This document shows, piece by piece, positions 1-22,459 of a stretch of 64,000 nt of DNA. Source of the DNA: Candidatus Omnitrophota bacterium (GTDB lineage Bacteria; Omnitrophota; Gorgyraeia; Zapsychrales; Aceulaceae); assembly GCA_029564765.1 (NCBI GenBank), contig JAKQPK010000013.1, forward strand, positions 125,753 through 189,752, written 5' to 3'. The position numbers were made by a program, and so were the translations under genes. The notes beneath the pieces are model-generated. The model worked only from the letters and a program-made list of their open reading frames with translations. It made no database searches and was not told where the DNA came from. Each line of letters opens with the position of its first letter. Positions within the stretch are counted from its first letter, which is position 1.

Positions 1-1
1 A

Positions 2-2042: not shown

Positions 2043-2047
2043 TCTTC

Positions 2048-4799: not shown

Positions 4800-4801
4800 C
4801 G

Positions 4802-5551: not shown

Positions 5552-5691
5552 ATATTAGCTCCGCTCACTTTCACTATAACTGAAACATTGTATCCAATCA
5601 AGAAGCAAACGCTTAATCTCTGCGAAGATGTGTTATGAGATTTCTTGGAAAGGATTATCAATTAGTCTATAATATAAAAAAAGGAGGGTGT

Positions 5692-6009: not shown

Positions 6010-6011
6010 TT

Positions 6012-6275: not shown

Positions 6276-6440
6276 CTTTCTGGAAAAGTGGAATTACTAT
6301 ATCATAAGCAAAAAAATGCTTCAATATGAATTATGGTATTTTTTCCGGTCAACACCTTGATTCCACCTAAGAGATGTGTTATATTTAGCTTAGCCACGAA
6401 GCCACGAAAGAATTTAAAACCACAAAAGGATGGTTAGTCT

Positions 6441-6761
6441 ATGAATAAGCGGGAAAATCCACGCTACGATTGTCGTGTTCCGCTCATGGATGAGCGCAGG
6501 GAAACCCTGAGCAGCAGCTACACTACAGATATTAGCCGCACAGGGGTTGGCTTCGTTTCAACACGATTCATTCCTGTTAATAGCAAGCTTATGGTCGAGA
6601 TCGCTTTAACTCGAGAGGAAAACCCGATGCTGGTTCAGGGACGGGTTCAATGGATCGAAAAGATCCCTCATTCGTCCAATTTCCGGATCGGAATGAATTT
6701 TTCAGATATTTCGTCAAATGCGCAATCGCGCATTGCAGAGCATTTTAGCGTTTCTGCTTAA
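6441..6761 (+). CDS. stand-alone PilZ domain protein (putative c-di-GMP receptor)
   Basis: It carries the 'RxxxR' motif ('RYDCR') and the 'DxSxxG' motif ('DISRTGVGF') that define c-di-GMP-binding PilZ domains. Confidence 0.7.
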   Translation: MNKRENPRYDCRVPLMDERRETLSSSYTTDISRTGVGFVSTRFIPVNSKLMVEIALTREENPMLVQGRVQWIEKIPHSSNFRIGMNFSDISSNAQSRIAEHFSVSA

Positions 6762-6793
6762 TATTTAAAAGCCACGGGGAAAGAGAATGCCCC

Positions 6794-7132
6794 TTGAAAA
6801 ATCGACTCAGTAGCAACCAGCGCCTTTTTGAACGCGTAGAGGTTCGTTTTCCTGCCCGCTTAAAGACTCTCCAAGCCTCTGAAGAGCGTGATATCGTTGT
6901 CAAAGATTTCTCTCCTGAAGGCATCAAGGTTCTTACGCACCAACGCCTTTCATTGTTTGATCGTCTGTCACTTTCATTGACGCCCATTGACGGATCCAAT
7001 CCCGTCCTCATGGATGGTTATGTCGTGTGGACAGGCAAGGATAACTCTGATAATTGGCATGCGGGGATCAAATTTAACCAAGTTGACCTGTTAAAAGCCA
7101 ACCGCATCATTGAATTTTGTCAGCGCTCTTGA
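6794..7132 (+). CDS. stand-alone PilZ domain protein (second copy)
   Basis: It carries 'RLFERVEVRF' (RxxxR) and 'DFSPEGIKV' (DxSxxG). It is a tandem paralogue of the preceding gene. Confidence 0.65.
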   Translation: MKNRLSSNQRLFERVEVRFPARLKTLQASEERDIVVKDFSPEGIKVLTHQRLSLFDRLSLSLTPIDGSNPVLMDGYVVWTGKDNSDNWHAGIKFNQVDLLKANRIIEFCQRS

Positions 7133-7243
7133 CAGATATCCAGAATCAGAAATAAAATCTTGACCAGCCCCCAAGCATCGTGTTAAACTCACTTCTCAAT
7201 TTATATTAAATATACAATTTAACCCCTCAACCCACTATTACAT

Positions 7244-9664
7244 ATGCAATACGGTCATTTTTCTTCAGATAGCACAGAGTACATTATCACTAATCCTCAG
7301 ACGCCTTTCCCGTGGATCAATTATTTAACCAACGATCATTACTGTTCCATCATCTCTCAATGTGCCGGTGGTTATAGTTTTTATCGCGATTGCCGTACCA
7401 ATCGCGTAACACGCTGGGCTCCGGAAAATTATAATTTTGATCGACCCGGTAAATATATCTTTTTGCGCGACGAGAATGGCAAGGCTTGGTCAGCGACCTA
7501 TCAGCCTATCCGCCAAAAACCTACATCCTACGCCTGTCATCACGGATTAGGATATACGACCATTCGCTCAAAGAATTTTGGTGTTTTATCCGAAGTGACC
7601 TATTTTGTTCCCGAGGACGATGATTGTGAGCTTTGGATCGTCACGCTGGAGAATACGACATCCAAGACGAAAAAGCTCGAAGTTTTTCCCTATGTTGAAT
7701 TCTTGCTGGGCGATTATCAGGAAGAGTTGCGCTATCGCAATATCATGAATCTTTATAATCGTATTTGGTTTGATAAAAAGCAAAAAGCGATCTTTGCCAA
7801 GAAAACAGCTCAATGGGCGGGCATGAACATTCAGCCGTTCTCAAGCTTGATCTTTTTTGCTTCTTCGCTGAACCCGCAAGGTGCCTGTACGCAGAAGAGA
7901 GCTTTTTTAGGTCGTTATAATAACGAGGAAAGACCACAAGCCGTCCTAGAAGGCAAATTCCAGGATTTTCATCTTTGCTCTGGCGAAGATGGCATAGGAT
8001 CTTTTAAGCATACTGTTACACTAAAACCTGGCCAGCGCATGGAGTTTACGGTTGTTTTGGGCCAGACAGAGAAATTAAGCACTCTTAAAAAGCGTCTGGT
8101 TAATTATAAAAGCGTTGCCTATGCTAAAAAAGAGCTCACCAAGACTAAAAATATTTGGCGTGAACGTATTGTGGGTAACATTGAGGTTCAAACACCCGAT
8201 AACGAATTCAATACGATCGTTAATGTTTGGCTTAAATATCAGATGTATATTTGTAATATTTGGTCCCGTTCTCCGAGCTTCTTCCATGAAGGATCCGGCG
8301 GGCGAGGCTACCGAGATTCCTGCCAGGATTCTGAATCCATTGTTTCCATCAATTCAGCCTTAACGAGAAAAAAGATCTTGAAGATCGCTTCTTTGATCCG
8401 TCGCGACGGGACATCCGCGCCAGGGTGGTCAGAGACAGTTGGGCCGCACAAATTTCTGCCGAACAAAGATCATCAAGTTTGGCTTACGGCGACTGTTTGT
8501 GCGTATATCAAAGAAACAGGGGATGTGGACATTTTATCGGAGCAGGTTCCGTATATTCGCGATAAGTGGGTTGGCGGCTGGCACGAAGATAAGAATTGGA
8601 AAGGCCCGGCCAAAGAAGATGGCACAGGAACCCTTTTAGAGCACTTAGAAAAGAATCTTAGTTTTTGTTTTTCTGATACAGGTGCGCGAGGATTTCCTCT
8701 GATCGGTCACGCGGATTGGAATGATGCGATCGATGCTGCTGGGATCAAGCATAAAGGGGATAGCGTATGGCTGGCCCAAGCCTTGGTACGGTCTTTGCGT
8801 TTATTCGTTGACCTGTGCGAATTTATTGGCGAAACAGAAAAAGCGCGTAAATATTGTCAGATGGCTGACGTGATGGATAAACGTGTTAACGACAAGGGCT
8901 GGGATGGGGAATGGTATTCGAGAGGGTTCGATGATAACGGCCAGGTTTACGGCAGTCGCAAAGATAAGGAAGGGAAGATCTTTTTAAATACGCAAGCTTG
9001 GGCCGTTCTTTCAGGCGTCGCTAAGGACAAAAGGCTTAAGACGGTATTAAAGAGTGTTGATAAATATCTTAACGGACCTCATGGGCTGGCATTGTTCTAT
9101 CCAGCTTTTACTTCGTGGGTTAAGCGTTTAGGGCGTATTAGCATGTTCTCAGAAGGCACAAAAGAGAATGCGGCTGTTTTTTGTCACGCGGCAACGTTTA
9201 TGGCTGTTGCGTACGCAATGATCGGGCATGGTGATAAGGCTTATGAGGCGATGAAAAAGGTCATGCCTAACGCCCAAAAGGACATGGAGCTTTACAAAAC
9301 AGAACCTTACGCTTACGCTGAATATCTTGTCGGTCCTGGGAACCCCTATCGTTATGGTGAAGGAGCGTTCACATGGATCACCGGTACTGCTGGCTGGAGT
9401 TTTATGGCTGCGACAGAATGGGTCCTAGGTGCCCGTCGAGATTTTAATGGCTTACGTATCGACCCCTCGATCCCTCATCACTGGAAAAAATGCTTCATTC
9501 GCCGTCCATTTCGGGGCAGTGTCTACGAGATCACGATCGAAAACCCCAAAGGCAAAGAACATGGCGTCCAGGCTGTCTTTTTAGACGGAAAAGAGCTTGA
9601 TACTAACTTGCTTCCGGCTCTTAATGACGGCAAAACGCATCGCGTTAGGGTTGTTTTAGGATAA
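7244..9664 (+). CDS. GH94 glycoside phosphorylase (cellobiose/cellodextrin phosphorylase-like)
   Basis: It is collinear along its whole length with the Cellvibrio gilvus cellobiose phosphorylase sequence as I recall it (no search was run). The N-terminus reads 'YGHF...EYIIT.P.TP.PWINYL'. Shared internal blocks include 'FFHEGSGGRGYRDSCQD', the catalytic region 'GFPLIGHADWNDAID', 'PHGLALFYPAF', 'GTKENAAVFCH', 'EPYAYAEY' and the C-terminal 'VYEITIENPKG'. Length is 806 aa. Confidence 0.85.
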   Translation: MQYGHFSSDSTEYIITNPQTPFPWINYLTNDHYCSIISQCAGGYSFYRDCRTNRVTRWAPENYNFDRPGKYIFLRDENGKAWSATYQPIRQKPTSYACHHGLGYTTIRSKNFGVLSEVTYFVPEDDDCELWIVTLENTTSKTKKLEVFPYVEFLLGDYQEELRYRNIMNLYNRIWFDKKQKAIFAKKTAQWAGMNIQPFSSLIFFASSLNPQGACTQKRAFLGRYNNEERPQAVLEGKFQDFHLCSGEDGIGSFKHTVTLKPGQRMEFTVVLGQTEKLSTLKKRLVNYKSVAYAKKELTKTKNIWRERIVGNIEVQTPDNEFNTIVNVWLKYQMYICNIWSRSPSFFHEGSGGRGYRDSCQDSESIVSINSALTRKKILKIASLIRRDGTSAPGWSETVGPHKFLPNKDHQVWLTATVCAYIKETGDVDILSEQVPYIRDKWVGGWHEDKNWKGPAKEDGTGTLLEHLEKNLSFCFSDTGARGFPLIGHADWNDAIDAAGIKHKGDSVWLAQALVRSLRLFVDLCEFIGETEKARKYCQMADVMDKRVNDKGWDGEWYSRGFDDNGQVYGSRKDKEGKIFLNTQAWAVLSGVAKDKRLKTVLKSVDKYLNGPHGLALFYPAFTSWVKRLGRISMFSEGTKENAAVFCHAATFMAVAYAMIGHGDKAYEAMKKVMPNAQKDMELYKTEPYAYAEYLVGPGNPYRYGEGAFTWITGTAGWSFMAATEWVLGARRDFNGLRIDPSIPHHWKKCFIRRPFRGSVYEITIENPKGKEHGVQAVFLDGKELDTNLLPALNDGKTHRVRVVLG

Positions 9665-9699
9665 CACCCTCTTTTCGTTTCTAGCTTAAGATCAAGATC

Positions 9700-12600
9700 C
9701 TAGAAGTATTTTGTGTAGAACAAGCGGATAATGTGTTGCGTATCCACTGTTGGCGTTGAACTGCCGATATAGGGAGTGCCAGTAGCGTAGCCCGTGTAGA
9801 TCGATGGCCCGACACCGTAAGAAGCAGTGATCTTGCTTTCGTCCCTTAACAGATATTGTGTTTCAAAGAAAAAATTGTGATGGCTCTGAAAATCAATTTC
9901 CCCTCTGTTGTTGCCTAAAGAATCTAGATCAAGCAATTTAGTTAGACTGTTCCATCGGCTCCACGTGTATTTTGTGTACATTTGAAGATTTGCTGTTGGC
10001 ATGTAGCTAACAGCCAATCCGACATGGTTCATGTTGTCATCAATAGGCCCTGCAAATTCATTGGGATTGCGGGTGTAGTCCAGATAAATATTCCATTTGT
10101 CGTTGGGCCTGAAATCAAGTCCTGTGCGGAAGATATTGTGGTATTCGTACGGTGGTAGCGAGAAAAAACCTTGACTATAAAGGAAATTGTAGTCGCTGCG
10201 GTAGATCCTTCCATAAGAACTATTTGTGATCGTGCTTGTGTCATTTAATATGCCGCGTGGGAAGTTATCTGCAGCGACAGTAAAATCATTTGTACGTTCC
10301 CAGATACCGCTCCATGCAACCCAATCTGTGAGCCAGTATTTTAAGCCTAAAGATGTCGTATACAGATTGGCATCTTCATTGTCAGGGATAGCGGCATTGG
10401 CCATTTGACCACCGTCAAGACGTGTCATGTATGGATCAAACCCTCCCGTCGTGCGCGGAACATGATGGGCTAGCAAAAGCATTTTTGTTTCAAATCGCGA
10501 ATTTGGCTGCCAACCCCATTCTGTGCGAGCAACTGTTTCAACATATTTATTCGTGCTGGCTTGATGAACATTGCGGATATCTGCCAGACCTTTTAATTTT
10601 GCATCCCAGAATGAAAGATCTGTCCGCCAATTTGCGACATAGCGGTCATAGTCGATACCGTTACCGATGCGGAAAGCGTTAATATCATCCGAAGAGATCG
10701 TTTGAAAGCTAACGGGATCCCGGAAGGTCAGATGGCGCCCCCAGAATTCATCATCACGCGTTTCTAGGTATGTTGAGAGGCTGGATTGAAATCCTTTGTC
10801 CATACGTGAAAGACGAAGGCGTGTTTTATAAAAAGTAGATTGACCGTCTTCTGGCTTGATCAGGAAATAATCCTGATCAGCGCCTTCAAGATAAGAGGAC
10901 GTTTTCATTAATTGTAGATCATAGGCAGATCCTCGTTGCTGAGAATCGTAAAAATCATTGGTTAGATCTTGCTGTAGGTAGGAGAAAGCGTATTGAGCGG
11001 AAACTTTTGAGCTAGGGCTTATCATGAGGCCTGAATCAACACTAGTAACGATATTATAAGCATCTAAATCTTGATTGATAAATCCAAGATGGGCGTTATC
11101 TGTGATGCCGACATAGAACTGCTCAGAGAAGCTTTGTTTTGCGCGGACACTGGTCGCTAAAGCATCAAAGACATCATAGTCTTGCCAGAGCGTTTTTGGT
11201 GAAGCGACCGTTGCAAGGATCTCTGTATTTTCTTTGCTAAAATTTGCCGAAAAGCCGCGCAACGCTGTTAAGCGATTTCCTTCACTGTCGCGTGTTGCAA
11301 AAGCTAGGTCGTCATTCCATTCGCCTTTTGTAAAATCAACAGGGATAGCGCCGGCATTGACATGTCCTGGCTTCCAGTTCGCCAGCCAAGGGCTCTCTTC
11401 CCACCAGGTTCTGTTGTTGGAAAGGCGCAAAGGATCGTCTGAGGACAACGCCTTATCTTCAAGACCGAAGGGGAAGACTTGAAGCTTGATTGTATCGTTG
11501 GGCTCATAGTCTACCCACAACTCGCGTACAGGCTGAAACCACATGTTAAGTTTTGTATCAGGTAAGAGAAGCTTGTTCCCGAATTTTGTATTCAAGGATG
11601 TGCTGGCAACATGACCATTGACCACTTTTAGCTCGGGGATGGACATAAGGTCGCCAACGTACAGAGTGTCGGCATTCAGGCCCATGGTGTAGGCACTGTT
11701 GCCTGCGTATAGGATCTGTACGTCCGCATAATCTGTCCATGTTCCCAGTGCGCCACTATCACGCAATGTCATCTTTTTTGATTTTCCAACATAGCTCCAG
11801 GGGTCAAGGGCAATGTTCGTGTGAAACGAAAAAGGATTGCCAATAGGCTCGATATCAACATCAAATTTCATTTGGCTGTAAATGGCAGGGTCGTAGGTGT
11901 TGATGCGCTGGTTCAGCTGATCCCCGGAGAGAAGGCGATAATTCTTTTCATTGAGGTCAAAGTTCGCGCGTTTCCAGATAAACTCGCCACCCCCGGATGT
12001 TTCAAAGCCAAAGCCTGCGCGTACTTTACCGTGGACCATGACCTCTTCAGGCTTGGTTTCCTGATACTCTTTTTGCTTAGAAGAAAACGATCGATCATCA
12101 ACAGATTTCTGAGGAGCGATGTCTTCATCGCCGAAGGCTTCAAGCATTTTTGCTTCAGAGACAGTCTCAGCATTGAGCGCGGAAGCAAGGGTCTGACGAA
12201 CTGTCCGAGCAGGAGGATGGCTAGTGACCGCCTGCTGGCCTTTTGTATGCTGAGCGTATTCTTGCTCCAGCTCTTTGATCGCGTGAAATTTGTTGAGTTC
12301 GTCGTTAATAGCTTTGTCGCGGTTTTCAGCATATGATACTGAGGATCGCGCGTTTTCTATGGATTGTCGGCAGAGAGGAAGGTATTTGAGGGCATCAGGA
12401 TTGCCAGGTTCTCTGTTCAAGGCCGCTTCAAATTTCTTTGCGGCTTCAACATATTGTCCTTGGCCGTATAAAAAAAGACCCATTTCAGCATCGATATTGC
12501 TAGCTGTTGCTATGAAGGGAAACATGGAAAAAAGAACGAAAACAAAAAACCCTAACGAATAAATCGTTACCGACTTTATAGAGCGGTTCTTTTGGCTCAA
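9700..12600 (-). CDS. large outer-membrane protein with an N-terminal TPR-like region and a C-terminal aromatic-rich predicted beta-barrel
   Basis: It has a signal peptide and a TPR-like 'YGQGQYVEAAKKFEAALNREPGNPDALKYL'. About 700 aa follow with alternating aromatic/hydrophilic beta-strand character, ending in 'LFYTKYF', the C-terminal aromatic signature of an OM beta-barrel. It is transcribed divergently from the ABC sugar operon. Confidence 0.55.
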   Translation of the reverse strand: MSQKNRSIKSVTIYSLGFFVFVLFSMFPFIATASNIDAEMGLFLYGQGQYVEAAKKFEAALNREPGNPDALKYLPLCRQSIENARSSVSYAENRDKAINDELNKFHAIKELEQEYAQHTKGQQAVTSHPPARTVRQTLASALNAETVSEAKMLEAFGDEDIAPQKSVDDRSFSSKQKEYQETKPEEVMVHGKVRAGFGFETSGGGEFIWKRANFDLNEKNYRLLSGDQLNQRINTYDPAIYSQMKFDVDIEPIGNPFSFHTNIALDPWSYVGKSKKMTLRDSGALGTWTDYADVQILYAGNSAYTMGLNADTLYVGDLMSIPELKVVNGHVASTSLNTKFGNKLLLPDTKLNMWFQPVRELWVDYEPNDTIKLQVFPFGLEDKALSSDDPLRLSNNRTWWEESPWLANWKPGHVNAGAIPVDFTKGEWNDDLAFATRDSEGNRLTALRGFSANFSKENTEILATVASPKTLWQDYDVFDALATSVRAKQSFSEQFYVGITDNAHLGFINQDLDAYNIVTSVDSGLMISPSSKVSAQYAFSYLQQDLTNDFYDSQQRGSAYDLQLMKTSSYLEGADQDYFLIKPEDGQSTFYKTRLRLSRMDKGFQSSLSTYLETRDDEFWGRHLTFRDPVSFQTISSDDINAFRIGNGIDYDRYVANWRTDLSFWDAKLKGLADIRNVHQASTNKYVETVARTEWGWQPNSRFETKMLLLAHHVPRTTGGFDPYMTRLDGGQMANAAIPDNEDANLYTTSLGLKYWLTDWVAWSGIWERTNDFTVAADNFPRGILNDTSTITNSSYGRIYRSDYNFLYSQGFFSLPPYEYHNIFRTGLDFRPNDKWNIYLDYTRNPNEFAGPIDDNMNHVGLAVSYMPTANLQMYTKYTWSRWNSLTKLLDLDSLGNNRGEIDFQSHHNFFFETQYLLRDESKITASYGVGPSIYTGYATGTPYIGSSTPTVDTQHIIRLFYTKYF

Positions 12601-12772
12601 GATGACCTCAGAATTCTATTAAATAAGATTAATTAATATGTGAAACTAAATAAGTATAACATATAAAAAATAAAGAAAGCAAGACAGCTTTTGGATTTTT
12701 CGGTCTTTATATAAAGGATGATCTGGATAAAGGCGTTGTCTTTTTATGTCGAGAAAGTGCGAACCGTTGCTT

Positions 12773-12801
12773 TTGACAAGAAAAAGGCTTTATGTTATAC
12801 T
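12773..12801 (+). promoter_or_regulatory. near-consensus sigma70-type promoter (TTGACA, 17 nt spacer, TATACT) in front of the sugar ABC operon
   Basis: TTGACA lies at 12773-12778, followed by a 17-nt spacer and TATACT at 12796-12801. The element sits in a 270-bp AT-rich divergent intergenic region. Confidence 0.5.
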
Positions 12802-12870
12802 GCGATTTCTAATCAGCGCGCGGGGAAGGATACCTGCGGGTAATGTTAACCATCTGGAGTCCTCGGCTTC

Positions 12871-14151
12871 ATGAAAAGAATACTGCCTGTTGTTCTCGCT
12901 GTTTTTCTTCTTGCTGGCTGCTCTCCACTCATCGAACAAAAAGATACGATCACCATTTGGCATTGGATGACTGACCGCCAAGATGCTTTCACAAGACTTG
13001 CTCAGCAGTATGAGCAGAAAACAGGCGTGAAGGTTCGATTTGAGCTTTATGCGCCTTCTGATATTTATTCTAGAAAGATCGTTGCCGCGGCCCAGGCGAG
13101 GGCTTTGCCGGATATTTTTGGCATTCTTGGCGAGAAGAAAAGACTTGCGCTGTTCGTTGAAAGCGGGTTTGTGGCGGATCTGACCGACGAGTTCGAGAAA
13201 AACGATGCCTTGTGGGAAAAAAGCTTTTTTGAAAAAGCTTTGAACGTGAATCGTTTTGAACCTGACAACGCTTACAAAGTTAAGCCAGGCATTTACGGCG
13301 TTCCTTTGGATGTCACGAATATCCAGATGCTTTACAATGAAGAATTATTTGTGAAAGCCGGCATCAAAGAACCTCCTGAAACATTTGATCAGTTCTTGGA
13401 AAATATTGCTGTTCTTAATCGTCTTGGCATTGATGGGTTCGTTTCTGGGTGGGGCGAGAATTGGATGATCGACTGCTTTTCCTCGATTTATGCTCTGAAC
13501 ATAATGGGGGAAGAGAAAGTGATGGCTACTTATCGGGGAGAGGTTTCTTATACGGATGAAGATTGGATCAAGGTGCTATCTCTTTTTAAGACGATGCGTG
13601 ACCATAAAGCTTTGGTTCCCGGTATCGTAACGAAGGGCAACAAGTACGCAGAGCAAGATTTTGCTTTGGGACGTGCCGCTTTTGCTTTTAACGGGTCTTG
13701 GTGTGTTAATGTTTATGATAAAATGAATCCAGCGTTGCAGTATAAGGTTATGCTGCCTCCGCGCGTTGATCCCGATGTGCCCATGCAAATTTGGGGCGGC
13801 GCAGGGTCTTCTTTTGTTGTGAACCAGACGGCGGGTAACAGGCAACGGATCATTGATTTCTTAAAATGGCTGACCGGCAAGGAGCAACAGGTTTTCCTTT
13901 CCCAAGAAACAAAAAATCTGCCATCCAATCGCGAAGCCTTGTCTGAGATCCCGGATGTCTTGCTTCAGTTTGCTAAGGCAATGGACATCACCACGCATCC
14001 ATCGCTTTGGCCTTATAATGAGTCGCCCCTTGTCACGGAAGCATTTTGCAAAGGTATTCAAGCCATCATTATAGGTGAGGCAACCCCTGAGAAAGTCGCG
14101 ACTGATGTACAACGCCTTAAGGAACGTGAAATGAAAAGGGAGCGACAGTAA
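12871..14151 (+). CDS. ABC transporter substrate-binding lipoprotein for carbohydrates (family 1 solute-binding protein)
   Basis: The lipobox 'LLAGCSP' is present. Size and composition fit MalE/UgpB-type sugar-binding proteins. It is the first gene of an operon with two permeases. Confidence 0.7.
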   Translation: MKRILPVVLAVFLLAGCSPLIEQKDTITIWHWMTDRQDAFTRLAQQYEQKTGVKVRFELYAPSDIYSRKIVAAAQARALPDIFGILGEKKRLALFVESGFVADLTDEFEKNDALWEKSFFEKALNVNRFEPDNAYKVKPGIYGVPLDVTNIQMLYNEELFVKAGIKEPPETFDQFLENIAVLNRLGIDGFVSGWGENWMIDCFSSIYALNIMGEEKVMATYRGEVSYTDEDWIKVLSLFKTMRDHKALVPGIVTKGNKYAEQDFALGRAAFAFNGSWCVNVYDKMNPALQYKVMLPPRVDPDVPMQIWGGAGSSFVVNQTAGNRQRIIDFLKWLTGKEQQVFLSQETKNLPSNREALSEIPDVLLQFAKAMDITTHPSLWPYNESPLVTEAFCKGIQAIIIGEATPEKVATDVQRLKEREMKRERQ

Positions 14152-14157
14152 TCTGCC

Positions 14158-15084: not shown

Positions 15085-15095
15085 AAATAGGGATT

Positions 15096-15941
15096 ATGGC
15101 TGTTAGCAATTATAAATGGATCAGGGTCGTTCAGTCAGTGTTCTCGCACGTGTTCTTGATTTTTGTTGCTCTGACATGTTTGTTTCCCCTCCTATGGATG
15201 CTGCGGTCATCCTTAATGACCAATGAAACTATTTTTATTGATAAGGCCCTAATCCCGCAAACGCTTCATTTTAACAATTTTTATTTGGCCTGGACGCAGG
15301 GTAAGTTTGGGGTCTATTTTTTAAACAGCATCATCTATACTGCCAGCGCTGTTTTTGCCATCATTGTTATTGCCTCTCTGGCCGCTTATGCGTTCTCTCG
15401 ATTACAGTTCCCGGGAAAGAATTTCTTTTTTTATTTGTTTTTAGCTGCCATGATGATCCCTTTGCCCGGCAGCTTTGTCCCGCTGGTCGTTCTCATGAAC
15501 AAACTTCATTTAGCTAATACGCGCATCGGCTACATCCTGTGCATGATCAATGTCGGTTTATCGCTGAGCATTTATATTCTTAAGACGTTCTTTGATAAGA
15601 TGCCTTCAGCTTTAGAAGATGCGGCGCGTATAGACGGTTGCTCAAAGCTGGGGATCTGGTTCCATGTGGCCTTGCCATTGGCGCGTCCGGCGATCGCCGT
15701 TGTTGTTATTTTTAATACTTTAAATATTTGGAACGAGTATATTTTGGCAACATTGTTGCTGAATCATGAGCACCTGATGCCTTTGCAAAGAGGCTTAATG
15801 GTGTATCAGGGAGCGTACAGCGTTGACTATCCTATGCTGATGGCAGGATTGTCGATCACGGCTGCTCCGGTCGTTCTGGTCTATCTGTTCATGCAAAAAC
15901 ATATTATTAAAGGTCTCTCGGAAGGAGCTACGGCTGGATAA
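15096..15941 (+). CDS. sugar ABC transporter permease (MalG/UgpE-like)
   Basis: The EAA motif 'LEDAARIDGCSKLGIWFHVALPLARPAIA' is present. It is the second permease of the CUT1 importer. Confidence 0.75.
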   Translation: MAVSNYKWIRVVQSVFSHVFLIFVALTCLFPLLWMLRSSLMTNETIFIDKALIPQTLHFNNFYLAWTQGKFGVYFLNSIIYTASAVFAIIVIASLAAYAFSRLQFPGKNFFFYLFLAAMMIPLPGSFVPLVVLMNKLHLANTRIGYILCMINVGLSLSIYILKTFFDKMPSALEDAARIDGCSKLGIWFHVALPLARPAIAVVVIFNTLNIWNEYILATLLLNHEHLMPLQRGLMVYQGAYSVDYPMLMAGLSITAAPVVLVYLFMQKHIIKGLSEGATAG

Positions 15942-18253
15942 TGAAAAAAAATCTCTACCTATCGATCGTTGCAACTGTTCTTTTTTCTATGTTCTTTTTG
16001 TCTCAGGCCTCGGCACAAATTTTAAGCTCGCAAGAATATGTCCGCAAAGCCTGGGAGGCATCTTCACAGAATAACTTTGAAGAAGTTGACCGACTCACTG
16101 ATGAATGTGTGTTGCACTATAATGATCAAGCCAAGCAACAACAAGCGTCCTTAACGGGATTCGCTGACAAGGGGACCGAAAGCCAATATCAGGCGCTAAA
16201 CGATGTCGCAACAGCTTTGTTCATTCACGCAGAGTCTTTGATGAAGCAAGGAAAGACCGAAGACTCCAGAAAACTTTTTATGCGGATCATTGAGGAGTTT
16301 TCTTGGGCGCAAAGCTGGGATCCGCGCGGCTGGTATTGGGCTCCTGCTGAAAAAGCTCAAGCTAGTATCGATAAGCTCGACGGGAAATATGAACAAAAAC
16401 AGGTTGTCAAGGTCGACCGCGGACCAAAAACACTGCCGACCCTCAGCTTTCCAGGAGCAGAAAAGATCATTGACTATAAAAAATACGGACATTTTGTCGG
16501 TGTTGGAACTAAAGAGTATGAATATGTAATAGATGATCCTGAAGGCCTGATGAAGGCTGTGGGTCAATGCATCTATCCGAACACTAGCAGTCTTTTGAAA
16601 GATCCGGTTTACCGCCAGATGGTAAAGGATGGAAAGCTCGGGGGCAGCCATTGGGATTTTGTGCATACGGATGACTTGCAGAAAGCCGTTTATAAATGGG
16701 CTTCTTCATCAGAAAATTGGGGCGTTAAGCTTTTTTACATGGGCCTCTTGTTCGAACGAGCCCATATGTGGTATGAGGCTATCAAATGTTATCGCGCTAT
16801 TCAAATTCACTTTCCACAGTCTGTTGGACGTACTTATTGGAACACGCCTTGGTATCCAGGACAAGCTGCGATCGCGAAAATACGCCATTTGATCAATATC
16901 CGTCCTGAATTAGATCTCAAGTATGTTGGCGCGAAGATCCAGGTGATCAACGGTTTTGATAATGATGTGGCCAACGATATTGTTTTAACTTGGCCCGGGG
17001 AATTACGTAAAAAGAACATTTGGGACAAAGTCCAAGAGAAATTTGCTTCATTTTTTCCTGAGAAACAGTGTGTTTTTAGTCCATCTAATTCCAAGAAGGT
17101 TTTAGGAGCTGGTCGGGTGCGTCTTTTGCAATGCAAAGAAAGCGGACATTGGCAGCTTCAGATCGATGAGAAACCAGCCATGATCAAAGCTGTTACCTAT
17201 GTGGCAACAAAGGTCGGGCAAAGTCCAGACAATGGAACTTTGGCTGATTGGATGGTGGAGGATACGAACCATAATGGAAAACCCGATGGTCCTTTTGATA
17301 GCTGGGTAGACAAGAATCGCAATAATAAACAGGATAGCGATGAGCCAGTTGTTGGGGATTTCCAGCTTCTTAAGGAAATGGGTGTTAATGCGATCCGTAT
17401 TTATAAGCAGCCTTATAATGCTGACAAAGAGCTTTTACGCAAGTTGTATAATGACTATGGCATCATGGTCATTATGGGTGATTTCTTGGGAAAGTACGCT
17501 CTTGGTTCTGGCGCGAGTTGGTTCGAGGGAACGGATTACGATAATCCTGAACACAAAAAGAACATGATGGAGTCCGTTCGTAAAATGGTTGAGGAATTCA
17601 AGGATGAGCCTTATGTTCTTTTTTGGCTTTTAGGCAACGAAAATAATTATGGCTTAGGATGCAATGCGGATAAAAAACCAGAAAGCTATTTTAAATTCGT
17701 TGAAGAAGTTGCCCAGATGATCAAATCTATTGATAAGAATCATCTTGTGGCTGTTTGCAATGGAGATACCTTATTTTTGGATATTTTTGCTGAAAACTGT
17801 CCTTCTGTTGATATTTTTGGTGCGAACGCTTATCGTGGGGATTATGGATTTGGCTCTTATTGGGCGCAGGTTTTTGAACTTACCGGGCGCCCCGCCTTTA
17901 TTACAGAGTATGGATGTCCAGCATACGCAAATTTTCTTAGTCCGGAAGAAGCGGAGCAAGCTCAGGCTGATTATCATCAGGGAGCTTGGGAGGATATGCT
18001 TTTTAACGCGGCTGGATCGAAGGAAGGTGTCGGGAACGCTTTAGGTGGGGTTGTCTTTGAGTGGATGGACGAATGGTGGAAGAATTATGAACCCTATTAT
18101 CATGATAAAACCGCTGGCGCTAAAGGGCCTTTCCCGGATGGTTTTATGTATGAAGAGTGGTTTGGCATCATTGGACAGGGAGATGGCAGCCATAGCCCGT
18201 TCTTGCGGCAACTTCGTAAAGCTTATGAGTATTATAAGAAGGCCTGGAATTAA
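15941..18253 (+). CDS. secreted two-domain protein: N-terminal helical repeat domain plus C-terminal clan GH-A (TIM-barrel, GH5/GH2-like) glycoside hydrolase
   Basis: It has a signal peptide. The 'WLLGNENNYG' (acid/base NE) and 'AFITEYGCPAY' (nucleophile E) blocks are spaced as in clan GH-A retaining glycosidases. The N-terminal ~135 aa are homologous to the repeats of the following gene. Confidence 0.6.
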   Translation: MKKNLYLSIVATVLFSMFFLSQASAQILSSQEYVRKAWEASSQNNFEEVDRLTDECVLHYNDQAKQQQASLTGFADKGTESQYQALNDVATALFIHAESLMKQGKTEDSRKLFMRIIEEFSWAQSWDPRGWYWAPAEKAQASIDKLDGKYEQKQVVKVDRGPKTLPTLSFPGAEKIIDYKKYGHFVGVGTKEYEYVIDDPEGLMKAVGQCIYPNTSSLLKDPVYRQMVKDGKLGGSHWDFVHTDDLQKAVYKWASSSENWGVKLFYMGLLFERAHMWYEAIKCYRAIQIHFPQSVGRTYWNTPWYPGQAAIAKIRHLINIRPELDLKYVGAKIQVINGFDNDVANDIVLTWPGELRKKNIWDKVQEKFASFFPEKQCVFSPSNSKKVLGAGRVRLLQCKESGHWQLQIDEKPAMIKAVTYVATKVGQSPDNGTLADWMVEDTNHNGKPDGPFDSWVDKNRNNKQDSDEPVVGDFQLLKEMGVNAIRIYKQPYNADKELLRKLYNDYGIMVIMGDFLGKYALGSGASWFEGTDYDNPEHKKNMMESVRKMVEEFKDEPYVLFWLLGNENNYGLGCNADKKPESYFKFVEEVAQMIKSIDKNHLVAVCNGDTLFLDIFAENCPSVDIFGANAYRGDYGFGSYWAQVFELTGRPAFITEYGCPAYANFLSPEEAEQAQADYHQGAWEDMLFNAAGSKEGVGNALGGVVFEWMDEWWKNYEPYYHDKTAGAKGPFPDGFMYEEWFGIIGQGDGSHSPFLRQLRKAYEYYKKAWN

Positions 18254-18259
18254 CAATTT

Positions 18260-18289
18260 TTGGCAAACCCGAAGGTTTTATGCTATACT
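18260..18289 (+). promoter_or_regulatory. candidate sigma70 promoter (TTGGCA, 18 nt spacer, TATACT)
   Basis: -35 at 18260-18265 and -10 at 18284-18289. The RBS 'AGGAGG' follows before the ATG at 18351. Confidence 0.4.
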
Positions 18290-18350
18290 CACTTTTACAT
18301 TTGGCCCATAGATGATCTTTTATCAAAATCACAAAAGGAGGAGTAGCGGT

Positions 18351-19208
18351 ATGAGAAAAATTTTTATTGCGGCTTTGTTGATCCTTGGAATTGGGATCGT
18401 GAGCCCTGTCACGGCGTCAGCTTATAATTTTGGTGATTATCGCTCTGTGACATTGACGAGCAAGGCATGGGAAGCCCTTAATGCCGGTGACGTTGAAGCA
18501 GTTTTGGCTTACACCAAGAAATGTATTGAACTTTATGGTGAGCAAGCTAAGAAAATGCAAGCTTCTTTAAAAGATTATGTGAAGGGCACAAACGAGGAAG
18601 TGTTTAAGAACTGGGCGCTTAATGATGTTTCTGTCTGCCTTTTCATCCAAGGTGAAGCCTATCGTAAGGCAAAAATGATGGATGAAGCCAAAGAAGCCTA
18701 CCAGAAAGTTATTAATGATTATAAATTCGGTCAGTGCTGGGATAATGGCGGGTGGTTCTGGAAGCCAGCGGAAGCTGCCAAGGAACGCTTGGACGCGATC
18801 ATCAAGGGTATTAATGTTGATTTTGGTGACATGAAATCTTCCACCTTGACCACTAAGGCATGGGAGGCTTACAACAAAAACGATCTTGAATCCGTCCTTC
18901 TGTATACCAATAAATGTATCGCAACTTACGGTGAAGAAGCTAAGAAGATGCAGGCTTCTCTTTCGGAATATCCATGGGAAAATAATGAAAAGATCTTTTC
19001 TTATTGGGCATTAAACGATGTTGGGACCTGTTTCTTTATTCAAGGGGATGCATATAAAAAAGCAGGAAAGGCAAAGGAAGCAGAAAAAGCTTTTGGTCAA
19101 TTGATCAAGGAATATTATTTTGCTCAAGCATGGGATCCCCAGGGTTGGTTCTGGAAGCCTTCAGAAGCAGCTGAGCAAAGATTAGAAGAAATGAAGGAAA
19201 ACCAGTAA
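18351..19208 (+). CDS. secreted protein made of two tandem copies of a ~130-aa helical domain ('KAWEA...WALNDV...WDPQGWFWKP')
   Basis: The start was moved to the Met at 18351 (MRKIFIAALL...) because the RBS 'AGGAGG' sits 7 nt upstream, and the 18312 Met would lie upstream of that RBS. A signal peptide is present. The two internal repeats share long identical blocks with each other and with the N-terminus of the preceding gene. Confidence 0.6.
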   Translation: MRKIFIAALLILGIGIVSPVTASAYNFGDYRSVTLTSKAWEALNAGDVEAVLAYTKKCIELYGEQAKKMQASLKDYVKGTNEEVFKNWALNDVSVCLFIQGEAYRKAKMMDEAKEAYQKVINDYKFGQCWDNGGWFWKPAEAAKERLDAIIKGINVDFGDMKSSTLTTKAWEAYNKNDLESVLLYTNKCIATYGEEAKKMQASLSEYPWENNEKIFSYWALNDVGTCFFIQGDAYKKAGKAKEAEKAFGQLIKEYYFAQAWDPQGWFWKPSEAAEQRLEEMKENQ

Positions 19209-19273
19209 GTCTTTATATTCGAAAGACTTATTTTCCTTGTTAAATATTAAATATTTTAATGTAAAGGGCTTTT

Positions 19274-19906
19274 ATGCATAAAGTCGGCCATCTCTTTTTG
19301 ATCTTTTTCCTGGTTGCTCTTTTTGGTTGCGATCAAAATATTAAACCTCAGGACGGAGCGCGAGATAGCGGGAAACAAGGCGTTCATTTCGACCCTTTTC
19401 CTATTTACACAAACGTTGGCTCGCGAGACAATCATTATGTTCCATCAGGATTTATGCCTGACGGGCAATGTATCAGTCTTGATAATCGTTGGCAAGAGGG
19501 TTGCCATAGCGATCCTACCTGTATCAAGATTTCTTATGACGTTATCTGTTCTCAGAAAGGGGCTAGATGGGCTGGTATTTACTGGCAGAACCCCGCACAT
19601 AACTGGGGTGGCCGTAAAGGTGGCTTTAACCTGACAGGCGCTAAGAAATTGACGTTCTGGGCAAAAGGCGAAAAAGGTGGCGAGCGTATTGAAGAATTTA
19701 AGATGGGTGGTATCTCAGGAGATTATCCTGATACCGATACAGCCTTTATTGGACCTGTTATCCTAACGCCGGAATGGAAGCAATACAGCATTGATCTGCG
19801 AGGCAAGGACCTGTCTTACGTAAGTGGAGGTTTTTGCTTTACAACCAACGTTGAGGTCAATCCTGAGCCGATCGTATTCTTTCTAGACGATATGCGTTAC
19901 GAATAA
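19274..19906 (+). CDS. hypothetical secreted lipoprotein
   Basis: Lipobox 'LFGCDQ' is present. The body is Trp/Gly-rich ('GARWAGIYWQNPAHNWGGRKGG') and may be a carbohydrate-binding-like beta domain. It is the last gene before a terminator. Confidence 0.45.
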   Translation: MHKVGHLFLIFFLVALFGCDQNIKPQDGARDSGKQGVHFDPFPIYTNVGSRDNHYVPSGFMPDGQCISLDNRWQEGCHSDPTCIKISYDVICSQKGARWAGIYWQNPAHNWGGRKGGFNLTGAKKLTFWAKGEKGGERIEEFKMGGISGDYPDTDTAFIGPVILTPEWKQYSIDLRGKDLSYVSGGFCFTTNVEVNPEPIVFFLDDMRYE

Positions 19907-19933
19907 TTTTTTGCAAAAGATGTATTTTAAAGA

Positions 19934-19962
19934 AGAGGTAGAGCGATCTACCTCTTTTTTGT
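19934..19962 (+). terminator. Rho-independent terminator
   Basis: Perfect 9-bp stem 'AGAGGTAGA'/'TCTACCTCT' with loop GCGA, followed by TTTTTT. Confidence 0.7.
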
Positions 19963-20075
19963 TTTTAGTCATGTGAAAAAATTCTTTGTTTTGCCTTGAG
20001 TTCGTAAAAATTGTTTGATATAGTAAAATTGTTTCTTATATATAATATTTAACGCTCTAAACAAAGAGGGGAAAA

Positions 20076-21341
20076 ATGTCCAAAGCCGCGAAACAAGTGA
20101 TCATTATCTTAGGGCTGCTGTTGGTTGTAAGTATCTTTGTTGCCTTCTCGACATTCAGTCAGAAAGCCACAATAGAACAAACTGCCGCGCAACTCCAAGG
20201 AGAAGTTGCGGGATACAAAAAAGACATTGCCACTCTTGATCAGAAACAAAAAGAAATTTTAGGGGAAAACGATCGCATTAAGCAGCAAGCGTCTGATGTT
20301 GCGAAGCAAAAAAATAAATTACAGGAAGAAGTCGATAGCCTTGCAAAGAAATTAAAGGATTTTGAAAAACGTGTTAGCGACGCTATGAGCGAGAGAGACG
20401 AATTAAAAGATCGCTATAGTAAAGTAAGTCGTGAGCGCGACGAAGTGATGTCAAAGTTGCAGGAAACAGAGCGAAAACTCTCTGAGGCTCAGAAGAAGGC
20501 GGAGTCTGTGGTTGCTGCTGTTGCGCCAGCGTCAAGCTTGATCGATGAAAACAAACAACTTGAAAGTCATTGGGCTCAAGTGCTTAAAGAGAAAGCGGAT
20601 TTTAGCCTGCGTATTGCCAAGCTAGAAGACGAGTTGAATCAGAGCGCTTTGGATGTTACAGAATTGAAGAAAAAGAATTCTGACCTAACGCTTGAGATCA
20701 GCGCTCTTAAGCAGGAGCGAGAAGATCTACAGCAGCAGATCAAGCGTGGCCAGGATATCGCGGACAATGTTTCCTTAGATCTTGTGCGTGAGAAGAATGA
20801 CAAGAGATTCGTTGGCTCTCAGTTAGATAAGATAAAAGAGGAAAATCTAGCTTTGCGCGCACAGGTCAAAGAATTAGGCTCTATGAAGATCGTTCTTGAA
20901 AAAAGTATCGCGAAGCTACAAGAAGATAAATCCACCATTGAGAAAAAATTGGCTCAATCAGAGACTGTTATTCAAGAACGTCTCGATGATGTTCTCAAGC
21001 TAAAAGAAGATATCAATCGAAAAGTTCTATCAGATAACAAACCTCAAGAGGTCATCTTGCCGCCGATCATCGTCAACGGCTCTGGTCTCGTGTCAGATAA
21101 ACCTGCTGGATCTAGGCACGTGAACGTTTCCGGCGAGATCGTGAGTGTTAACCAAGAGAATAATTTTGTTATCGTAGACCTCGGACAGAAAACAGGGGTC
21201 AGCATCGGTGATCGCTTGAGCGTTTATCGAGGCTCAGCTTATCTTGGCGAAGTCGAGATCATTCAGGTCCGTGCGGATATTTCAGCAGCGGACATCAAAA
21301 AACAATCATCGCCGTTTCAAACAGGCGACCTTGTAAAATAA
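20076..21341 (+). CDS. membrane-anchored long coiled-coil protein with a C-terminal small beta domain
   Basis: It has an N-terminal TM helix and about 300 aa of heptad-rich, K/E/Q/L-dominated sequence. The C-terminal 'IVDLGQKTGVSIGDRLSVYR...GEVEII' looks globular. Function unknown. Confidence 0.4.
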   Translation: MSKAAKQVIIILGLLLVVSIFVAFSTFSQKATIEQTAAQLQGEVAGYKKDIATLDQKQKEILGENDRIKQQASDVAKQKNKLQEEVDSLAKKLKDFEKRVSDAMSERDELKDRYSKVSRERDEVMSKLQETERKLSEAQKKAESVVAAVAPASSLIDENKQLESHWAQVLKEKADFSLRIAKLEDELNQSALDVTELKKKNSDLTLEISALKQEREDLQQQIKRGQDIADNVSLDLVREKNDKRFVGSQLDKIKEENLALRAQVKELGSMKIVLEKSIAKLQEDKSTIEKKLAQSETVIQERLDDVLKLKEDINRKVLSDNKPQEVILPPIIVNGSGLVSDKPAGSRHVNVSGEIVSVNQENNFVIVDLGQKTGVSIGDRLSVYRGSAYLGEVEIIQVRADISAADIKKQSSPFQTGDLVK

Positions 21342-21346
21342 TTCCC

Positions 21347-22354
21347 GTGAGCGCTAAAAAAATTAGCATTGAAGATGTTGCGCAGCGCGCCGGCGTGTCC
21401 ATCACGACCGTTTCTCGTGTCATCAATAATTTCCCTACTGTTTCCAAAAAAAACCGCGCTAAGGTCGAAGAAGCGATCGCCCATCTTAATTTTAAGCCGA
21501 ATGTAAGCGCCCAGCGTCTTGCTCGAGGGCTTAATACCGCGGTCGGCCTGGTCATGCCTGGCTATCCTGGCATTTTTCATTCTTTTTACGCGATCGAGAT
21601 CATTCGCGGGATCGGGCACGCGTGCGAAACATTGCATTTGGACCTTGTCTTTCATATTACTAATGGCATGAACCCTCTAAACACCAGCAACGTCGGTGGT
21701 GTTATTTTTGCGGATATCATTGAAAACCGTAAACAGTTAGAGTCGATCCTTTCGGAAGGGATCCCATGCATGGTCATCAACAACATCGTAGATGACCTTA
21801 AGGTGAACTTTATCGCTGTTGATAATTTTAAGGGTGCAGAGATGGCGGTCGACTATCTATTTGGGTTAGGCCACACGAAGATCGCGACAGTGACCGGAAG
21901 CCTGCAAACGCAAGGCGGCGTTCATCGCTTTGATGGATATAAAAGCGGCCTGAAGCAAAAAGGCCTTATCTTTACGGAAGATTATGTCTATGAGGGGGAT
22001 TATTCTCGCCGGTCCGCGAGAATAGGATTAGAAAAGTTTTTATCTCTTAAAGAAGATCGTCCGACAGCTATCTTTGCCGCTAGCGATGATATGGCATCGG
22101 AGATCATCAACGTGGCTCTTGAGCAAGGGCTCAAGGTTCCCAAAGACCTTTCTGTGATCGGTTTTGATGACAACCCTATAGGTCTATATGGCTCTGTAAG
22201 TTTGACAACCATTCGACAACCTCTTTTTAAAATGGCCGAAGAGGCTGTGAAGCAGCTGAACGCGATCGTTTCTGGACGTCGTCATTCGCCTGTTAAACAA
22301 GTCTTGGCGCCTGAGTTAGTGGTCCGAGAGTCGTGCGCATCCCCAGGCGCTTAA
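21347..22354 (+). CDS. LacI-family transcriptional regulator (GTG start)
   Basis: The HTH 'ISIEDVAQRAGVSITTVSRVINN' is followed by a periplasmic-binding-protein-like sugar-binding domain. The start codon is GTG at 21347. Confidence 0.8.
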   Translation: MSAKKISIEDVAQRAGVSITTVSRVINNFPTVSKKNRAKVEEAIAHLNFKPNVSAQRLARGLNTAVGLVMPGYPGIFHSFYAIEIIRGIGHACETLHLDLVFHITNGMNPLNTSNVGGVIFADIIENRKQLESILSEGIPCMVINNIVDDLKVNFIAVDNFKGAEMAVDYLFGLGHTKIATVTGSLQTQGGVHRFDGYKSGLKQKGLIFTEDYVYEGDYSRRSARIGLEKFLSLKEDRPTAIFAASDDMASEIINVALEQGLKVPKDLSVIGFDDNPIGLYGSVSLTTIRQPLFKMAEEAVKQLNAIVSGRRHSPVKQVLAPELVVRESCASPGA

Positions 22355-22459
22355 AACGACCTATTTTCTCCCGAACTGAATGATTGACAATCTCTGATTA
22401 AAAAGTTATTCTGTTTAGCACTTATCATTGAGATAAAATATATTTTATGGGGACTTATT

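Follow-up and report, generated by a model that had tools for sequence, protein, structure and literature searches.

A 64,000-nt stretch of a metagenome-assembled genome of Candidatus Omnitrophota (the window) holds, between positions 6441 and 22354, a gene cluster that probably serves as a scavenging system for beta-glucan oligosaccharides, with beta-1,3-glucan of the laminarin or curdlan type as its likeliest substrate. The general scheme, in which an extracytoplasmic glycanase is followed by import through an ATP-binding cassette (ABC) transporter and by phosphorolysis with an enzyme of glycoside hydrolase (GH) family GH94, is very likely; that the substrate is beta-1,3-linked is an even call, and cellobiose is a possible substrate. 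A beta-1,3-linked disaccharide is our best guess because the secreted hydrolase of the locus resembles family GH158 and because its phosphorylase carries an Arg/Phe acceptor pair of the laminaribiose phosphorylase (LBP) type. The original prediction, an earlier reading of this DNA, had described a coherent locus of a diderm outside the Bacteroidetes by which a beta-linked gluco-oligosaccharide would be captured in the periplasm, imported by an ABC system and phosphorolysed in the cytoplasm. Our analysis supports this description, and all of the open reading frames (ORFs) named in it were recovered where it had placed them.

In the system that we propose, a Sec-exported, GH158-like retaining glycanase would act in the periplasm or on the cell surface, cutting beta-1,3-glucan chains to short oligosaccharides (laminaribiose, probably), accompanied by two other exported proteins, a two-module helical protein and a 210-aa lipoprotein. 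A solute-binding protein (SBP), also a lipoprotein, and two permeases would bring the sugars into the cell, with an ATPase encoded outside the window, and the cytoplasmic GH94 enzyme would convert the disaccharide to glucose-1-phosphate and glucose without ATP cost. Two PilZ genes would form a fixed accessory of the phosphorylase gene, and a large outer-membrane barrel may admit the oligosaccharides as a general channel. The export signals of these proteins are directly readable in the translations, whereas we infer both the direction of flux and any role of the outer-membrane protein.

The secreted hydrolase and its helical partner

The hydrolase gene (15941 to 18253, plus strand) encodes 770 aa beginning with a signal peptide that would be cleaved between ASA and Q. 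An AlphaFold model built from 26 homologues (pLDDT 79) predicts that this peptide is followed by a helical module (residues 30 to 146), a mixed domain, a beta-sandwich (326 to 419) and, at the C terminus, a TIM barrel (473 to 770). The catalytic clan GH-A fold that had been predicted is intact: the motifs LLGNENNYG (E567) and FITEYG (E656), with their NE and TEYG cores, are invariant in the 26 homologues and give the layout of the clan, a (beta/alpha)8 barrel whose beta-4 is followed by an Asn-Glu acid/base and whose beta-7 is followed by a Glu nucleophile.

The best and only strong matches of the hydrolase in the PDB are GH158 enzymes (9oro, E = 4e-15; 6pal, E = 2e-14), at 27 to 30% identity; the characterized members of that family are about 29 to 30% identical to one another (PMC7157763, PMC13195107). 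E567 aligns with the acid/base, Glu143 of GH158(Pro) and E137 of BuGH158, and E656 aligns with the nucleophile, Glu229 and E220 of the same enzymes, these roles being taken from published work on the two (PMC13195107, PMC7157763). The main product released by GH158(Pro) is laminaribiose (PMC13195107). There is no match to the C-terminal Ig-like domain of GH158; in the model it is the barrel of the hydrolase that is C-terminal, with the beta-sandwich ahead of it. Because this accessory beta domain precedes the barrel, unlike in the solved GH158 enzymes, the alignments lead us to name the hydrolase GH158-like rather than a proven member of the family. Its homologues are numerous (1,411 matches, the best 120 of which share at least 56% identity over the full length) and are publicly annotated as 'hypothetical' or as 'GH2 beta-galactosidase/glucuronidase'. 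The clusters of distant relatives carry a second, smaller GH, which matches GH158 only.

Residues 27 to 146 of the hydrolase share 35 to 38% identity (BLASTP) with each module of the protein encoded by the next gene (18312 to 19208, plus strand; start probably at M14, position 18351), a secreted protein of two helical modules. This helical module is specific to the phylum, and Pfam sees in it only a weak TPR_6 match. A search for tandem repeats in the gene with TRF found none at the nucleotide level, and the repeat is seen in the protein only. The window gene has two 131-aa modules, versus three in a near-identical JGI contig (L001, 21069 to 22358, with 393 bp extra), which reflects either strain-level variation in copy number or a repeat that was collapsed in one assembly. 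In relatives, the protein is 285 to 469 aa long. Behind the helical-module gene of one relative (L084) lies a GH116 gene (21318 to 22439), which suggests an extra beta-glucosidase step in some lineages.

The GH94 phosphorylase

The phosphorylase gene (7244 to 9664, plus strand) encodes a predicted cytoplasmic protein of 806 aa (Pfam GH94, E = 1e-108). It is collinear over its whole length with cellobiose phosphorylase (CBP), as the original prediction held: residues 1 to 806 align with residues 1 to 811 of the C. thermocellum enzyme (CtCBP; 3qde). Its architecture consists of an N-terminal supersandwich (PF06165, E = 4e-70) and, for catalysis, an (alpha/alpha)6 domain (PF17167, E = 2e-108). 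Among PDB entries, it scores 512 bits with CtCBP, 435 with chitobiose phosphorylase (ChBP), 409 with C. gilvus CBP, 377 with the GH94 domain of cyclic glucan synthase, 254 with cellobionic acid phosphorylase, 148 with LBP and 60 with cellodextrin phosphorylase, and hence falls in the CBP/ChBP clade and not with nonglycan phosphorylases. The catalytic Asp is D494 in HADWND, and the motifs SRS, GGRGYRDS, the His of VFCH, and TGTAGW align with those of CtCBP and ChBP; the phosphate-site and -1 site motifs are hence kept, and the roles of such GH94 motifs are known (PMC6771811). Because Asp494 and the phosphate-site Arg and His residues are conserved, the protein is, as judged from its sequence, a genuine glycan phosphorylase. 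The subfamily is found throughout the phylum (3,257 matches, with all of the best 120 at least 62% identical).

The acceptor site is another matter. The CtCBP stretch GEISTYPPGYKEN reads GRISMFSEGTKEN in the window enzyme (GEISTY versus GRISMF), such that E649 of the C. gilvus enzyme is replaced by Arg and Y653 by Phe, and NFQRNF reads RNIMNL. The cellobiose acceptor residues Glu649 and Tyr653 and the Gln165/Arg166 loop of the neighbouring subunit are therefore all replaced. We take these to be the +1 acceptor residues of CBP in C. gilvus numbering, an assignment that agrees with the spacing of the motifs. E649 of CBP is an experimentally established determinant of acceptor binding (PMC7896129), and the corresponding motif of the window enzyme, LGRISMFSEGTKEN, is invariant among the Omnitrophota orthologues (62 to 93% identity). 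The laminaribiose phosphorylase PsLBP carries the same Arg and Phe at both positions (LGRAFGFAFGHKEN; LGRAFGF versus LGRISMF in the window enzyme). The window enzyme is not an orthologue of PsLBP or AlLBP, since it scores only 148 bits with 6ggy versus 896 for the protein of another Omnitrophota locus (L028). In this and two further loci (L030 and L043), the slot next to the PilZ pair is filled by such a 900-aa orthologue of the Paenibacillus LBP. The window enzyme would thus be a mosaic, with a backbone of the CBP clade and an acceptor pair of the LBP type, and we regard the Arg/Phe pair as a lead, not proof, for beta-1,3 specificity.

Two other specificities were considered and rejected. A chitobiose phosphorylase is disfavoured by the lower score with ChBP than with CBP and by an acceptor motif unlike that of ChBP (GFVTRV). 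The Arg at the E649 position had raised the candidate of a cellobionic acid phosphorylase, by a residue mapping that we presume to be correct; this candidate was dropped on account of its score of 254 bits and the absence of the partner Lys.

Importer, operon limits and promoters

The importer has the make-up of a CUT1 system, a family-1 SBP and two MalF/MalG-type permeases. The SBP (12871 to 14151; 426 aa) matches SBP_bac_8 and SBP_bac_1 in Pfam and is a predicted lipoprotein with the lipobox LLAGC; the permeases (14158 to 15084, 308 aa; 15096 to 15941, 281 aa) both match BPD_transp_1, and all three genes are on the plus strand. The public call of the second permease is 241 aa and drops the first transmembrane helix (15096 to 15215), while the 281-aa ORF fits the homologues. 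The importer had been predicted to be ATPase-less, and indeed all frames of the 64 kb lack an LSGGQ signature; a gene for the ATPase presumably lies at another place in the genome, an arrangement common among CUT1 systems.

The genes from the SBP to the hydrolase are tightly packed, with intergenic distances of 6, 11 and -1 bp, the end of the second permease gene overlapping the start codon of the hydrolase gene by 1 nt. The helical-module gene follows 58 bp after the hydrolase gene, and the gene for the 210-aa lipoprotein (19274 to 19906, plus strand; lipobox LFGC) comes 65 bp further on. This lipoprotein is conserved together with the hydrolase, being found in 12 of 14 loci with the GH and likewise in L085 and L086, and gave no match in Pfam, NCBIfam or the PDB even at E values of up to 10. 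Directly 3' of its gene is an intrinsic terminator (19928 to 19961, plus strand) with a 15-bp stem followed by a T run. A gene for a 421-aa protein that is anchored in the membrane at its N terminus, forms a long coiled coil and ends in a small beta domain (20076 to 21341, plus strand; Pfam gives coiled-coil noise only) begins 169 bp past the lipoprotein gene, and the gene for a LacI-family regulator (21347 to 22354, plus strand; 335 aa, GTG start) begins 5 bp behind that. The original prediction had placed the LacI gene in the ABC/GH operon; because this strong terminator intervenes, the coiled-coil and LacI genes form a separate unit.

The divergent 270-bp spacer between the outer-membrane and SBP genes is AT-rich, as had been noted (35.9% GC versus 46.9% for the window), and the near-consensus promoter seen there is real. 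This promoter of the ABC/GH operon (12773 to 12801, plus strand; TTGACA-17-TATACT with TG, 11 of 12 positions) is invariant in blocks TTTTGACAA and TATGnTATACTGC in an alignment that covers four species with proteins of 50 to 92% identity. The same alignment contains a second invariant region, with blocks TAAGTATAnCAT and AGCAAG, where an extended -10 element lies on the minus strand at 12653 to 12661. This is likely, from its conservation and position, to be the promoter of the outer-membrane gene (12651 to 12683, minus strand; extended -10 TGtTATACT, -35 TTGCTT, 18-nt spacer); its weak -35 matches the consensus at only three of six positions, and it was hence missed by the consensus scan. 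That scan also gave a promoter-like site ahead of the GH94 gene (7129 to 7158, plus strand; TTGACA-18-TAAAAT, 11 of 12 positions).

The LacI protein has both an N-terminal helix-turn-helix domain (PF00356, E = 1e-18) and a sugar domain resembling periplasmic binding proteins (PF13377, E = 1.5e-32) and is likely to be the repressor of the sugar system. The two PilZ domain proteins, of 106 aa (6441 to 6761, plus strand; Pfam PilZ, E = 1e-12; RENPR and DISRTG) and 112 aa (6794 to 7132, plus strand; TTG start; E = 1.2e-11; RLFER and DFSPEG), both keep the RxxxR and (D/N)xSxxG motifs, and these motifs mark them as putative receptors of cyclic di-GMP (c-di-GMP). The pair probably couples the system to c-di-GMP signalling.

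Conservation of the cluster in relatives

The clustering of these functions, as claimed earlier, is not due to chance. Synteny was examined around GH94 homologues (64 to 74% identity) on six contigs from relatives, and in all six the GH94 gene is followed by codirectional genes for an SBP, two permeases and the GH, with extra genes between them in some. The same linkage is present in L003, L005 and L006. A helical-module protein follows the GH in four of the six contigs, a PilZ-PilZ pair lies immediately upstream of GH94 in five, and in L086 the lipoprotein, coiled-coil and LacI genes follow the cluster in the same order as in the window. Hence, the conserved unit is GH94 (mostly preceded by PilZ-PilZ), the ABC importer and the GH, usually then the helical-module protein and the lipoprotein. 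In one of the six (L087), a 1,076-aa secreted protein is encoded between GH94 and the SBP (12755 to 15985); it has repeated GFENGLNDW units and the look of a carbohydrate-binding module.

A giant gene lies directly before the PilZ pair in four of the six relatives, encoding 15,650 aa in L084, 9,332 aa in L085, 44,129 aa in L087 and 23,032 aa in L088. These genes occupy positions 1 to 8739, 1 to 8828, 1 to 795 and 1 to 8724 of the respective loci. The window has no ORF of more than 1,000 aa and no giant gene by its PilZ pair. Even without a giant gene, the PilZ pair and the phosphorylase gene remain together.

Weighing of alternative substrates and roles

Several observations weigh against a beta-1,3-glucan scavenging system or leave parts of it without confirmation. 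The GH94 enzyme is, over its whole length, nearer to the cellobiose and chitobiose phosphorylases than to LBP, and there is no LBP structure with a bound acceptor that could show the Arg and Phe to set 1,3 specificity (PMC6771811). The SBP matches in the PDB, which are weak, are to maltose-, xylo-, arabino- and chitin-oligosaccharide binding proteins and offer no clue to specificity, and a MalK/MsiK-type ATPase gene is missing throughout the window. No LacI operator was found as an inverted repeat in five intergenic regions of the window, nor did a palindrome scan of the promoter regions of the window and six relatives give a conserved operator. Moreover, for a peripheral nutrient locus, the conservation of the GH (about 58% identity) and GH94 (62% or more) throughout the phylum is uncommonly strong, a hint that their role is more central.

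The original prediction had framed the locus as one for beta-glucan or cellodextrin. In a cellobiose or cellodextrin locus, the clan GH-A enzyme would be a cellodextrinase or endoglucanase acting on beta-1,4 linkages and the GH94 enzyme a CBP. The collinearity with CtCBP, the best match, speaks for this, as do the label of cellobiose phosphorylase that JGI gives to the GH94 homologues and the richness of clan GH-A in cellulases, with GH5 endoglucanases among the matches of the hydrolase. However, the cellulase matches reach only E values of about 1e-3 at 12 to 14% identity, and significant similarity of the hydrolase, at 27 to 30%, is to GH158 alone; the replacements of E649, Y653 and the Gln-Arg loop are invariant across the orthologues; and an LBP occupies the same slot in sister lineages. 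The cellobiose framing is not supported by a GH158-like hydrolase and an acceptor site with the LBP pair, and we consider a beta-1,4 locus unlikely.

West-Roberts et al. have proposed that predatory or epibiotic Omnitrophota harvest the glycans of prey or hosts with giant surface proteins and a secretion system, and the neighbourhood has been read in this way in the literature (10.1101/2023.11.21.568195, section 11; 10.64898/2026.06.07.730766). The giant genes before PilZ-PilZ-GH94 in four of the six relatives fit this hypothesis, and conservation of the GH, GH94 and PilZ pair throughout the phylum would suit a trait that defines a lifestyle. Yet the cluster does not depend on a giant gene, because the window organism, L003, L005, L006 and L086 all keep it without an adjacent one, and the locus holds nothing lytic to peptidoglycan or pseudomurein, while the GH94 route yields ordinary glycolytic fuel. 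Nor, to our knowledge, is linear beta-1,3-glucan usual in bacterial or archaeal walls. Prey-glycan harvesting seems improbable to us. Turnover of an endogenous glucan, in which the GH would remodel a self-made periplasmic or capsular beta-glucan and the ABC importer and GH94 would reclaim the fragments, with PilZ providing control by c-di-GMP, is less probable still: the weak similarity of the hydrolase to GH72 glucanosyltransferases (17 to 20% identity) is far below that to GH158, no GT2 or GT84 glucan synthase was found in the annotation of the locus genes or in a partial annotation of the rest of the window, and LacI and ROK regulators together with an SBP importer are typical of catabolic loci. 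Scavenging of a beta-1,3-glucan remains our preferred explanation.

Relation to known systems

The cluster as such was already known. West-Roberts et al. (2023; 10.1101/2023.11.21.568195) reported conserved pilZ genes, binding-protein-dependent carbohydrate transporters and glycosyl hydrolases downstream of the giant genes of Omnitrophota and interpreted them as serving prey cell-wall degradation. The neighbourhood in their Fig. 7C is the same cluster, and we see it right after the giant genes in L084, L085, L087 and L088. The window differs in having no adjoining giant gene and in the insertion, on the opposite strand, of the outer-membrane barrel gene between GH94 and the SBP, and in their description GH94 is not named and the GH is not linked to a GH158-like family. 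For Omnitrophota, Williams et al. (2021; PMC8542988) had deduced uptake of di- and oligosaccharides through ABC systems and their cleavage by beta-glucosidases and phosphorolytic enzymes, polysaccharide depolymerases seeming to be absent. Seymour et al. (2023; PMC10066038) described most Gorgyraia and Velamenicoccia as having sugar transport and glycolysis, and fermentation of sugars has been inferred in both studies (PMC8542988, PMC10066038). A 2026 preprint reported that import of the SusC/D type is absent from Omnitrophota genomes and called the recurrent flanking hydrolases 'GH2' (10.64898/2026.06.07.730766). What is added here are the identities of the parts, the beta-1,3-glucan hypothesis, the bond between PilZ and phosphorylase where there is no giant gene, and the characterization of the barrel family.

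Taken as a whole, the system is an ordinary sugar locus of the ABC importer and phosphorylase kind in an unusual, phylum-specific variant. The laminaribiose phosphorylase of Paenibacillus sp. YM-1 reportedly lies in an operon with ABC transporter genes. Such operons of Gram-positive bacteria and thermophiles resemble the window locus in the import of a beta-glucobiose or oligosaccharide by way of a binding protein, in an ATP-sparing GH94 enzyme, in a LacI-type regulator nearby and in an ATPase that is often encoded elsewhere. The window system differs from them in its diderm host, in the GH158-like, Sec-exported enzyme that is translationally coupled to the permeases, in the PilZ pair before the phosphorylase, in the phylum-specific helical module and in the mosaic acceptor site of GH94. 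With the Bacteroides beta-1,3-glucan locus 1,3GUL, which contains BuGH158 (PMC7157763), it shares an extracytoplasmic endo-beta-1,3-glucanase of GH158 type that would feed uptake and the logic of a dedicated, coregulated locus. In contrast to 1,3GUL, it has no SusC/SusD, TonB-dependent transporter, hybrid two-component sensor or periplasmic GH3; an ABC system serves for uptake through the inner membrane, the last cleavage is phosphorolytic, and the GH has another domain order and additional N-terminal domains. No Plug, TonB_dep_Rec or SusD match was found in Pfam for any protein of the locus.

Omnitrophota are ubiquitous, uncultured and mostly ultra-small, and what they feed on and how they live are matters of debate. 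The GH94 and the secreted GH are among the most conserved nonhousekeeping proteins of the phylum, and a concrete hypothesis for their substrate, a glucan of laminarin or curdlan type and laminaribiose, could steer enrichment or cultivation. It also bears on whether the giant-gene neighbourhood serves prey-wall degradation.

The outer-membrane protein

The gene between GH94 and the SBP (9700 to 12600, minus strand) encodes a 966-aa protein which, as originally predicted, combines tetratricopeptide repeats (TPR) with a large outer-membrane barrel; the further claim that it is a dedicated part of the locus finds no support in the comparison with relatives. It has a signal peptide, one or two TPR and no Pfam model. 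An AlphaFold model (pLDDT 71.6, pTM 0.65) predicts a short TPR region, a disordered linker (residues 118 to 183), a beta-rich region and, between residue 447 and the C-terminal YTKYF, 24 or more long strands. Its only fold matches are outer-membrane barrels, for the barrel part alone and with TM scores of at most 0.3 in this model; the best are TonB-dependent transporters including SusC, LptD and Deinococcus SlpA, which are of the same barrel size class and likewise have an N-terminal periplasmic extension. Pfam gave no match of the protein to Plug, TonB_dep_Rec or OstA/LptD, and a profile from 29 homologues matches TPR proteins only in the PDB. Exopolysaccharide export of the BcsC/PgaA/PelB type, in which a TPR-barrel protein would go with PilZ, was rejected on the grounds of an overly short TPR part, an overly large barrel and the lack of a synthase; the 1,076-aa protein of L087 was tested as a homologue of the barrel and is not related. 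The TTG start yields a signal peptide cleaved between ATA and S. The public call begins at M26 (941 aa) and thereby loses this peptide (12526 to 12600), while the 966-aa ORF fits the homologues.

The family has more than 422 matches at 36 to 83% identity. Because the homologues of the outer-membrane protein, as of the GH and GH94, are almost exclusively from Omnitrophota wherever a source is named, all three are phylum-wide families, and the barrel, of about 900 aa, is one without a known relative. Synteny around the outer-membrane gene was followed in 80 species of the GTDB genome collection by tblastn with the window proteins and clustering of the neighbouring ORFs, and no genome gave two such loci. 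In about 12 species and three close relatives, it follows the SBP, two permeases, the GH, sometimes the helical-module protein, and the lipoprotein or second small GH and precedes ROK, coiled-coil, LacI and RNR genes. In about 11 species, it stands between Lnt and LpxL-like genes and the coiled-coil and LacI genes or is followed by ROK, coiled-coil and LacI. It comes after LepA, LepB, PgsA and PlsY in about 20 species; between a response regulator and HD-GYP/GAF, MshEN, MarR and TolC genes in about 12, including Ca. Velamenicoccus archaeovorus; and, in four, between a radical-SAM gene and purH, folC, mnmE, PilZ, PilZ and LBP. A sugar-related gene is present within 10 kb of it in about 28 of the 80 species, the rest having neighbours for housekeeping or envelope biogenesis.

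The outer-membrane gene is not inside the cluster in any of the six relatives examined around GH94, and in UBA6210 the gene (L032) and the cluster (L088) are on separate contigs; only the clade of the window, L003, L005 and L006 has it inserted, on the opposite strand, between GH94 and the SBP. These data fit better with a general core channel or a structural, major outer-membrane protein than with a dedicated component, and a specific role of the barrel in uptake is doubtful. The string of outer-membrane gene, ROK (in some), coiled-coil and LacI recurs in 18 of the 80 species, often with neither ABC nor GH genes in the vicinity. As a possible partner of the barrel, the coiled-coil protein may span the envelope, and, given the recurrence of LacI or ROK near the barrel gene in about a quarter of the species, the barrel may have a sugar-related role. 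A bolder proposal is that the 966-aa protein is the first of a phylum-specific class of outer-membrane glycan channels that are large in bore and independent of TonB, with the coiled-coil protein, LacI/ROK control and gating by c-di-GMP through PilZ, as the Omnitrophota counterpart of SusC/D. We think this rather improbable; if true, the channel would pass beta-glucan chains to the GH158-like enzyme, and PilZ gating would tie the harvest to an attached or predatory state. The triad of outer-membrane, coiled-coil and LacI genes is found in loci L037, L046, L053, L056, L059 to L061, L068, L072 and L073. In the lineage with LepA, LepB, PgsA and PlsY, a conserved protein of about 1,078 aa with no Pfam match is encoded on the opposite strand right after the barrel gene (L020, 5920 to 9156, minus strand, and about 16 other loci).

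Neighbouring genes and further observations

About 8 kb from the locus, the window has a pair of minus-strand genes for an MFS_2 (GPH-family) glycoside transporter (30479 to 31933; Pfam MFS_2, E = 4e-60) and a conserved 318-aa partner (29517 to 30473), for which no match was found in Pfam, NCBIfam or the PDB even at E values of up to 10. The two proteins are 57 and 74% identical, respectively, to a pair encoded between the second permease and the GH in L087, and an MFS_2 gene occupies the same slot in L084 and L085.

The locus is flanked by housekeeping genes, with mnmE upstream and mnmG and thiE downstream. NCBI labels its proteins 'hypothetical protein [Candidatus Omnitrophota bacterium]', and two contigs of JGI metagenomes (288 kb and 17 kb) encode an identical GH94 protein. 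The mnmE gene and the PilZ pair are separated by genes for a CvpA-like membrane protein (4802 to 5551, minus strand) and a small TPR protein (5635 to 6009), which are conserved alongside the locus in no relatives but the closest ones (L003, L005 and L006).

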